Of a DNA stretch of 1,326 nucleotides, positions 1 through 1,326 are shown in pieces. This stretch comes from Naegleria gruberi (lineage: Eukaryota). The translations under genes were made by a program, and so were the position numbers. A model generated the notes under the pieces. The model saw only the letters and a program-made list of their open reading frames with translations. It did no database searches and was not told the origin of the DNA. Numbering within the stretch: the first letter of the stretch is position 1; every line of letters starts with the position of its first letter. The DNA is taken from the NCBI GenBank assembly GCA_000004985.1, contig GG739445.1. The stretch is one strand, 5' to 3'.

Positions 1-117
1 TGCCTGTTTGAATTGGCCGTAATAACATTTTAAGGTAATAGAAACTTGAGTATGATGAGTAATACCATGAATATATATTGTATTTCCTTTAGAATCTAGT
101 AATTTGGTTACCTTGGT

Positions 118-167
118 AAGTCAAGTGTTGTATATTTTCGCTTTATTAGTTGTAAATGACTTTGAGA

Positions 168-208
<41 letters not shown>

Positions 209-264
209 ATTTGAAAAATTTATCAAGTGTTGTAGTAAAATTTAATTTGAGTGTAATAAATCTT
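118..264. repeat. Degenerate partial tandem duplication of about 100 bp. It is marked by the exact 12-mer 'tcaagtgttgta' at 121-132 and 223-234, and in both copies this is followed by 'tttgag' then 'aataaat'.
   Basis: The 12-mer is exact at both sites. Downstream, 'tttgagaataaata' (161-174) matches 'tttgagtgtaataaatc' (246-262). The spacing between the 12-mer and 'tttgag' is 40 bp in one copy and 23 bp in the other, which implies indels. The (AT)16 tract sits between the two copies. Confidence 0.6.
172..203. repeat. Perfect (AT)16 dinucleotide microsatellite.
   Basis: Positions 172 to 203 alternate a/t without a break. An AT-rich imperfect extension lies on both sides (aataaata upstream, tttataat downstream). 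Confidence 0.95.
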
Positions 265-471
265 TATATGAAAAGCTATAAAAAGTACTTTCTTTATTAG
301 AGATCAAGTTATCGGCGTTAATTGTCTTAAAAATCAATTTTGTTAAACAACTTCAATCATATTTATTAGAATCTTGATGATACAATTTTTGTTCCATACC
401 ATGTTTACCATTTAATATCGAGTAGTAAAAATATGTAAATTAAAAAAAGGAAAAAATGTTGAGTTTTGGTA

Positions 472-501
472 TTTTTTTAAAAAATGTTTTTTTGAAAAAA
501 A
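472..501. repeat. Two adjacent homopolymer T-tract/A-tract blocks (T7A6 followed by T7GA7), that is a low-complexity sequence expected to be intrinsically bent. They are preceded by A7GGA6 at 442-456.
   Basis: 'tttttttaaaaaatg' is at 472-486 and 'tttttttgaaaaaaa' at 487-501. Each block is nearly self-complementary. Confidence 0.85.
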
Positions 502-532
502 TTTCGATAAAAACTAGAAATTTATTAGTATT

Positions 533-865
533 TCAGTCTTCTACAGATTTCAATCTCAGAGTTTCTAGAGTTTTCCACCAATATTGGGATTTCCACACTG
601 GATGAACTAGAACCATTTGAGCTTTGGATTCTATGCAATGTTGGATTACTCTCCCTATTAGATTGAATGGGACGCAACACCAATTGATTACTGGTTCTAT
701 CCAAAGACGGGAGAATGAATCTGCTGGAATTTCCCTGCTGGTTCTGTGTCTTGTACAGAATGGGATTACCTTGAAATTGTACGGGCTGGCAAATCGATCG
801 TATCCTATTGATACATTCAATTGCTGCTGTACTCGGTTGAAGGAACTTGTTAAGATTTCCCAATC
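533..865 (-). pseudogene. pol fragment 2: the post-RNase H conserved domain of a DIRS-like element (DWEIL at 851-865; DRFAS at 785-799; VPFNLIGRV at ~647-673; HPVWKSQYWW at 575-604). It ends at stop 533-535.
   Basis: About 105 aa align with the conserved block that I recall following RNase H in DIRS-type pol proteins. This fragment is in a different frame from fragment 1. It stops about 8 aa after the 'WW..L..L' motif, where intact elements continue. Confidence 0.68.
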
Positions 866-893
866 TGCAAAACAATCAATCAATGTTCTAGAG

Positions 894-1326
894 TTAAGAG
901 CTGTTGGACCAATGACCATCGATTTTTAAATTCTTCTCCTTGAAATGAGCTCCCCATCCAATCTTTGAAGCATCTGTCCAGAAATAATTCACCAGACTTG
1001 GGAATTGAAAAACCTTTCCATTCCAAAAATTCAGATTTGCTGAAATCCATTGGAGGCAGTAAACTACTCGATCGGAGAGGTAACAACTTCCTTCCCATCC
1101 GTGTTTGAAAACTTTCTCTGCTGCAAATGTATAAATTGGATTGAGCATTACTCTTGCTGGTTGAAAACAATCTAGATAAGCAATAACAATACCAGTGATA
1201 CGATATAAATCTCTTAGGAAAATTCTTTCTCCTTGATGAAATTGAGATAAAACCATTTCAATTCTTTGTTTTATCTTGATTATTGTTGACGAATTCATTG
1301 ACAATATCTTCTTTTCTAAATCTACA
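894..1326 (-). pseudogene. pol fragment 1: reverse-transcriptase C-terminal region (YLDC motif at 1167-1178), a shortened connection region and the start of RNase H (TDASKIGWGA at 948-977; GHWS at 906-917). It is terminated by TAA at 894-896.
   Basis: The frame is open from the window edge. Codon 1304-1302 is TTG, so the ORF-track 'M' is an alternative start and not a real initiator. The YLDC-to-TDAS spacing is 64 aa, against roughly 150 aa in intact DIRS/gypsy-type pol. The RNase H is cut off after about 28 aa. Confidence 0.6.

Follow-up and report, generated by a model that had tools for sequence, protein, structure and literature searches.

The window analysed here is the whole 1,326-nt stretch of Naegleria gruberi contig GG739445.1. 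Its long open reading frames (ORFs) are confined to bases 533-1326, where the GC content is 0.35-0.42; none is found in the AT-rich part, bases 1-532, with a GC content of 0.19-0.25. On the minus strand, positions 533-1326 very probably represent a defective pol fragment of a retrotransposon of the DIRS order, from the subgroup that bears a methyltransferase (MT) domain (DIRS1-like/PAT-like). The outcome is chiefly a negative one, in that the long ORFs are those of a decayed eukaryotic retrotransposon and not of a prokaryotic defence or metabolic system.

Pol blocks and the RNase H lesion

On translation, the minus strand shows one frame that runs open from 1325, at the edge of the window, to 897 and reads ...GIVIAYLDCFQPA...FWTDASKIGWGAHFKEKNLKIDGHWSNSS*, followed by an ORF at 919..533 that is offset from it by one base and reads ...DWEILTSSFNRVQQQLNVSIGYDRFAS...NWCCVPFNLIGRVIQHCIESKAQMVLVHPVWKSQYWW...SVED*. 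An earlier note, made from the sequence alone, had described pol motifs spread over two frames, and the offset of the two blocks bears this out. The strings that it quoted ('DRFAS', 'NWCCVPFNLIGRVIQ' and 'LVHPVWKSQYWW') are all found in ORF 919..533, and the RNase H start that it had seen lies in frame 1325..897.

The first block begins with the C-terminal end of a reverse transcriptase (RT), that is, the thumb/connection region, at 996..1325 on the minus strand, and is open to the window edge. It was mapped by tblastn and with a family profile. Residues 477-619 of P0158, a protein encoded on the JGI metagenome contig L005, align to window 1325-900 with 61% identity (tblastn, E 1.5e-58). The RVT_1 match in the L005 ORF stops at residue 507, equivalent to P0158 residue 477, which aligns to window position 1325. 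The window therefore begins where the RVT_1 match of the relatives ends, and the catalytic core of the RT lies outside it; indeed, no RT catalytic motifs were found inside the window. The RT-like motifs of the earlier note are thus real RT sequence, but of the thumb/connection only.

The RT is followed, at 906..995 on the minus strand, by the N-terminal ~30 residues of an RNase H domain, identified by translation and alignment. They contain the first catalytic Asp motif, FWTDASKIGWGA, at 948-983 and end in ...GHWS. In alignment A1, W116, T117, D118, A119 and S120, as well as G123, W124, G125 and A126, are invariant in this RNase H start, and the Pfam RT_RNaseH match in L005 begins at the equivalent position.

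The second block is a Dam/PCIF1-like MT domain of ~110 aa (DWEIL...DRFAS...NWCCVPFNLIGR...LVHPVWK...) at 536..865 on the minus strand, closed by a stop codon at 533-535 and likewise mapped by tblastn and profile. This is the long and specific block after RNase H that had been noticed earlier. Residues 719-819 of P0158 align to window 865-563 with 65% identity (E 3.9e-50), and the MT ORF of contig L001 aligns to window 751-539, also with 65% identity (E 2e-37). The last ~25-35 residues of the domain are missing, and the similarity to relatives stops at ~539-563.

A query made by joining the two blocks was run in a full HMMER scan against 1.84 billion representative proteins and gave 1226 matches at E<=1e-3, 100 of them at E<=1e-10; the majority span both halves of the query. 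The top matches were P0001 (5e-48, 55% identity) and P0002 (1e-31, 41% identity). A family profile was built from 184 proteins among these homologues, and it matches nt 1325-885 at profile positions 477-624 (E 1.1e-45) and nt 892-518 at profile positions 708-829 (E 4.7e-42). Aligned with P0158, the window shows 61% amino acid identity over RT-connection/RNase H and 65% over the MT, with a DNA identity of 69-73%; over 142 residues, the window shares 58% identity with P0001/P0152, proteins of the ENA metagenome contigs L001, L002 and L004. By codon position, the identity to relatives is 0.63-0.75 at position 1, 0.75-0.79 at position 2 and 0.41-0.55 at position 3. As the first two positions are better conserved than the third, most of the divergence must have built up under selection on the pol frame, while the element was active. 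A word-indexed protein search with the joined ORFs gave no match, and a sequence search of the PDB returned only noise (indoleamine dioxygenase, E 0.13). Exact matching gave no record of the 128-aa ORF, and a 36-mer did not occur in the viral, metagenome and prokaryotic genome collections.

Between the two blocks the RNase H domain is disrupted. By blastn, L005 aligns to window 907-1199 and 590-867, and the gap between the two segments is 302 nt in L005 vs 39 nt in the window, so ~263 nt of RNase H have been deleted. In addition, a fragment of the domain is inverted: at 864..905, on the plus strand, SAKQSINVLELRAV corresponds to the HINxxELxAV motif with the catalytic Glu. This motif comes after ...G.WS in every relative and would be expected in the window after GHWS on the minus strand. 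When a position-specific scoring matrix (PSSM) was made from profile columns 620-633 (consensus ERSRHINVRELLAV), the SAKQSINVLELRAV peptide scored 23.7 bits and the runner-up among the 14-mers of all six frames 5.6 bits; the observed score was reached by 0 of ~1.5 million 14-mers from 1000 shuffles. The inverted peptide was independently set at profile positions 620-633 by hmmsearch. Inversion and deletion look like a combined event that arose via template switching or break repair.

The catalytic positions of a retroelement RNase H, which we take to be four, are an Asp (TDAS), a Glu and the Asp motifs YTDS and AD.LSR. In the window, the first Asp is in place, the Glu lies within the inverted piece and the last two Asp motifs are deleted; the lesion also shifts the pol frame by one base. 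The recombinase, the end of pol and the terminal repeats are all absent from the window. The window copy is dead and cannot move: of pol it keeps only the RT thumb/connection, the RNase H start of ~30 residues and the larger part of the MT, the RNase H core is deleted, the Glu motif inverted and the frame broken, with neither recombinase nor repeats in the window. Such a fragment would have no function of its own. Apart from the lesions the two pol pieces are free of stops, and the ORFs are still long because decay after the inactivation was limited apart from the rearrangement. Neither the ~263-nt deletion nor the ~40-nt inversion at 864-905 had been seen in the earlier note, nor had the third, overlapping frame described below.

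The sequence CCAAT is found on both sides of the inversion (860-864 and 909-913). A scan of metagenomes for related loci gave one further degenerate copy, L006. It was suspected of carrying the same RNase H deletion as the window, and the comparison showed that the deletion is not shared.

Relatives with a tyrosine recombinase

In Pfam, 19 homologues share one domain order, RVT_1 - RT_RNaseH/RVT_3 - Dam (PF05869), to which a weak PCIF1_WW match is sometimes added; the RT_RNaseH model matched is PF17917. No match to rve, RVP or chromo was found by Pfam in the 22 scanned proteins of relatives (the 19 homologues, the L005 ORFs and the Naegleria ORFs).

The nearest near-intact relative is L005. 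Its ORF 77-2719 encodes a gag with a CX2CX4HX4C knuckle, RT, RNase H and MT, and directly after the MT an ORF of 314 aa (2694-3638) contains HSLRIGGAT...GHWKSDAVDRYFR. Its product is matched by two family models, Phage_integrase of Pfam (5e-5, 23.6 bits, over positions 26-167 of the 172 in the profile) and the XerA tyrosine recombinase of NCBIfam (1.9e-7, residues 30-299). It is 42% identical to the C-terminus of the Naegleria lovaniensis protein, with the R, HxxR, W and Y positions kept. The element is otherwise intact, but at ~2690 of L005, right after ...SGNV, the pol and recombinase frames are exchanged by a single-base frameshift, which is due to a mutation or to an error in sequencing. 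The swap is visible because the alternative ORF of L005 bears the usual MT end, ...EPWKKSWRIVASLISFRSTN*, as found in L004 and in Naegleria.

The sole named relatives are proteins of Naegleria lovaniensis (P0002, XP_044550393 and cluster mates). The closest named relative is a full-length element of 4.8 kb on contig L007 (PYSW02000016.1), at ~3889-8674, with split direct repeats at its borders: A1 at 3889-4075 and A2 at 7947-8133 are 99% identical, B1 at 7912-7955 and B2 at 8631-8674 are 100% identical, and B1 and A2 are adjacent. This is the only relative with visible element ends, the metagenome contigs, L005 among them, being too short. Its ORF 4977-7004 encodes RT-RNase H-MT and shares DRFASNYNFKV, NWCCVPF and ILVHPVWK with the window. 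A longer ORF of 1317 aa, ORF-A (3950-7903), is read in the +2 frame with respect to pol and encodes a gag (CCHC), a stretch overprinted on the entire pol, and a tyrosine recombinase; pol is thus nested within a gag-X-recombinase gene. In several NCBI gene models, P0002/XP_044550393 among them, pieces of both frames are spliced together; these models are chimeras, an artefact of annotation. Between A2 and B2, at 8205-8460, GGGATGCC(T)-containing repeats are found, with an 81-nt unit present twice and a 31-nt unit three times; they are possibly recombinase or packaging sites.

The domain order RVT_1, RT_RNaseH and Dam in relatives, together with the tyrosine recombinase of L005 and of the Naegleria element, supports the earlier proposal of a dead DIRS-like pol relic in this region. 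A DDE integrase in intact copies had been named as a finding that would speak against it; no rve was found in the relatives scanned, and the ORF after the MT is a recombinase.

Several points weigh against the assignment. Because the window lacks a recombinase and terminal repeats, the assignment rests on intact relatives at 41-65% identity. The Phage_integrase scores of these relatives, at 21-24 bits, are under the gathering score of 27.1, and the inversion in RNase H could in principle be an artefact of assembly. Moreover, the MT domain, which defines the DIRS group among tyrosine-recombinase retrotransposons and is lacking in Ngaro and VIPER (PMC3266345, PMC4157794), has also been reported, as the same Dam-like domain, in some Ty3/gypsy long terminal repeat (LTR) elements (2026 preprint 10.64898/2026.05.21.726589). 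The MT is therefore not strictly diagnostic, and the recombinase of the intact relatives is the decisive evidence. The earlier statement that the block after RNase H sets DIRS elements apart is essentially right, with these Ty3/gypsy elements as the exception. A profile made from the two recombinases gave weak, non-significant matches to solved structures (integrase E 0.014; Cre E 0.3-0.9).

The Ty3/gypsy elements concerned provide another possible source of the fragment, namely a Dam-carrying LTR retrotransposon (DAM-LTR) with a captured DIRS-derived MT. The window alone is not decisive here, as the integration enzyme is not in it, and matches to PF17917 are common to Ty3/gypsy elements. However, in L005 as in the Naegleria element, the MT is directly followed by a tyrosine recombinase, and rve, RVP and chromo are lacking; rve was found in 0 of the 19 Pfam-scanned homologues; the Naegleria element has split direct repeats and not LTRs; and the +2 frame that leads to the recombinase in the relatives is preserved in the window. 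A DAM-LTR origin is accordingly very improbable.

Even less credit can be given to a prokaryotic or viral system as the source of the ORFs, such as a phage Dam, or the RT of a retron, group II intron or diversity-generating retroelement combined with a Dam methylase. When the raw ORFs of the window were searched in Pfam, the sole match, a weak one, was to the phage-type Dam family PF05869 (E 0.033, ORF 919..533), which would suit such a system. Against it, searches of 185,579 prokaryotic genomes and of the IMG/VR viral contigs gave no relative, which also agrees with the earlier view of the window as eukaryotic. The homologues join an RT_RNaseH of the LTR-retroelement type to Dam and lie in Naegleria nuclear contigs, and neighbouring genes on related contigs encode protein kinases of eukaryotic type, best matched in Willaertia and Naegleria.

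The overlapping frame and the substituted methyltransferase

Besides the DIRS-type pol blocks, the minus strand of the window keeps a +2 frame relative to pol. Its upstream part, over RT-connection/RNase H, lies at 880..1257 and includes ORF 880..1170; its downstream part, over the MT, is ORF 525..875 (116 aa). Both were recognised by homology and by a shuffle test, in which synonymous codons were shuffled with the pol protein and codon usage fixed. In the first block of the window, the +2 frame has 1 stop in 143 codons vs 9.3 expected (P<5e-4). In the second block, its longest open run covers 113 of 128 codons, and 0 of 2000 shuffles reached that length. The RT-RH-MT part of L005 has 0 stops in 464 codons of the +2 frame vs ~25 expected (P<5e-4), and in L004 the longest open run is 443 codons vs a shuffle mean of 59. 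The +1 frame was chance-like in the same test.

At the protein level, window 880..1257 is homologous to the alternative ORF of L005 (1324-2751; E 2e-21), which also aligns to the 525..875 region with 47% identity (E 5e-27), and residues 473-554 of P0152 align to window 809-564 with 51% identity (E 1.5e-23). In P0001/P0152 and in the Naegleria ORF-A, the +2 frame runs directly into the recombinase. This frame is an overprinted N-terminal extension of the recombinase ORF, that is, the pol/recombinase overlap known from DIRS1-like elements, in which a long overlap of the two ORFs is combined with a catalytic domain in the non-overlapping 3' end (PMC3266345). The overlap comprises 464-675 stop-free codons in the intact relatives and is present as a dead trace in 233 of 271 codons in the window.

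For the +2 frame, identity by codon position could not tell selection apart from common descent, and the only evidence for this frame is the scarcity of stops. That the overprinted stretch of ~450 residues is translated and selected as a protein, and not merely held open, is conceivable, although we lean towards doubting it. If true, the functional overlap of the two genes would be exceptionally long for a eukaryotic mobile element, and it would imply that pol is expressed through +1 frameshifting or through initiation at an internal site.

The earlier note had ascribed all long ORFs of the window to the relic. For ORFs 880..1170 and 525..875 this is correct by way of the recombinase frame, but not for the plus-strand ORF 624..929 (101 aa), which runs antisense over the MT domain. 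We considered this ORF as a gene and rejected it as a chance ORF, as it is not exceptional (P=0.36) and is not preserved in relatives.

For the MT domain itself, the Pfam Dam gathering score of 28.1 bits is exceeded by P0004 (34.0), P0095 (40.2) and P0146 (34.1), as well as by P0007. At the position where Dam has NPP[YF], the window has CVPF (621-632, minus strand, within NWCCVPF at 621-641), which is common to the window, L001, L005, L006 and the Naegleria element. A motif census showed NPP[FW] to be kept in only 36 of 159 aligned relatives. NWCCVPFNLIGRVIQHCIESKAQMVL is the same in the window and L006. The MT domains of DIRS1 have been described as PCIF1-related, with substituted catalytic residues, and as likely inactive (PMC4738411), and the Dam domain of the DAM-LTR study showed no N6-methyladenine (6mA) activity in E. 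coli (bioRxiv 10.64898/2026.05.21.726589). Judged by its sequence, the MT domain of this family is probably a conserved pseudo-enzyme that is catalytically dead. The strong conservation of its motifs suggests that it would retain some non-catalytic role in active elements. The extreme ORF overlap and the conserved, probably dead MT may be of interest for studies of gene overprinting in transposable elements and of the role of the MT in DIRS elements.

Placement among DIRS elements, flank and hosts

The fragment comes from an undescribed and fairly divergent family of MT-bearing tyrosine-recombinase retrotransposons, although the kind of element is already known. A PAT-like layout is most likely for the parent element. 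The PAT-like elements Pat1, Toc and Kangaroo have the same RT-RNase H-MT pol, and the recombinase is downstream of the MT in the intact relatives of the window. The Naegleria element L007 has the A1...B1A2...B2 split direct repeats by which PAT-like and Ngaro elements are defined (PMC4157794), and the gag CCHC zinc knuckle of L005 and L007 is as in Pat1. The clade differs from PAT-like elements in that its recombinase ORF is overprinted on nearly the whole of pol, which has been described in the literature for DIRS1-like elements; the window copy further differs in having no repeats and no recombinase, and in an identity of <=41% to any named element.

DIRS1-like elements, such as DIRS-1 of Dictyostelium, share RT-RH-MT with a tyrosine recombinase, as well as the long pol/recombinase overlap, which L001/L004, L005 and L007 show too and of which the window keeps a trace. 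Their MT likewise has substituted catalytic residues, as with CVPF for NPP[YF] in the window. However, they are defined by inverted terminal repeats and internal complementary regions, where L007 has split direct repeats instead. In Ngaro and VIPER, too, a tyrosine recombinase comes after RT-RNase H and the repeats are split direct ones, but they are without MT and usually without ORF overlaps (PMC3266345), whereas both a clear MT and an overlapping frame are present in the window. DAM-LTR elements (10.64898/2026.05.21.726589) carry the same Dam-like domain on an RT/RNase H pol, with a DDE integrase, LTRs and often a chromodomain, in contrast to the tyrosine recombinase and split direct repeats of the window's relatives.

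By analogy with these intact relatives, the parent element would have carried gag and a pol with RT, RNase H and a Dam/PCIF1-like MT, together with a long second ORF in the +2 frame, overprinted on pol and ending in the tyrosine recombinase. According to the literature, such elements move by transcription and reverse transcription by RT/RNase H, after which the recombinase inserts the cDNA and no target-site duplication arises.

The AT-rich flank at 1..532, to which no strand can be given, is non-coding and shows no similarity to the element family by composition, profile or tblastn. The family profile gave no significant match in 1-532, with leftover matches at domain E >= 0.3 and negative scores, and tblastn with the L005 recombinase as query gave zero matches there. 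Tandem Repeats Finder located a (TA)n microsatellite of ~20 units at 168-208, and long runs of A and T are present at 440-510. A search of the window for Rfam families and tRNA genes gave nothing.

Either the element is truncated on its 3' side and the flank is host DNA, or the flank has been inserted into the element. In the second case, the copy would be interrupted by the AT-rich sequence at ~535, with the remainder of pol and the recombinase beyond the left edge; alternatively, it could be a propagating non-autonomous deletion derivative. Anything >532 nt from the fragment lies outside the window, and the otherwise stop-free pol and +2 frames fit a young copy. On the other hand, no second copy with the same deletion and inversion was found, L001-L005 and L006 being without it. 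We regard an interrupted copy or a propagating derivative as unlikely, and the classification as a DIRS-type fragment would be unchanged by either; the RNase H lesion alone ends autonomy.

Named relatives were found only in Naegleria, a lineage in which DIRS-type elements were formerly listed as uncertain, with seven putative, unconfirmed DIRS1-like copies in N. gruberi (PMC3266345). The degenerate copy in L001-L004 adjoins a gene with Pkinase and DUF6826 domains (L004 238-1842), and the best named matches of this kinase are in Willaertia magna (36%) and Naegleria lovaniensis (28%). The kinase neighbour and the Naegleria element together point to heterolobosean amoebae as hosts of the family. 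Judged by the relatives alone, the host of the window copy would likewise probably be an AT-rich heterolobosean protist of the Naegleria/Willaertia kind. A Glomeromycota host had been considered from the kinase and Transposase_21 neighbours, and was dropped in view of the kinase matches to Willaertia magna and Naegleria lovaniensis. The Transposase_21/DUF1258 gene in question lies at 3025-5166 of L003, on a contig neighbouring the degenerate relative. Finally, the locus of the degenerate relative was recovered from several ENA samples (ERZ272372xx-ERZ272374xx).

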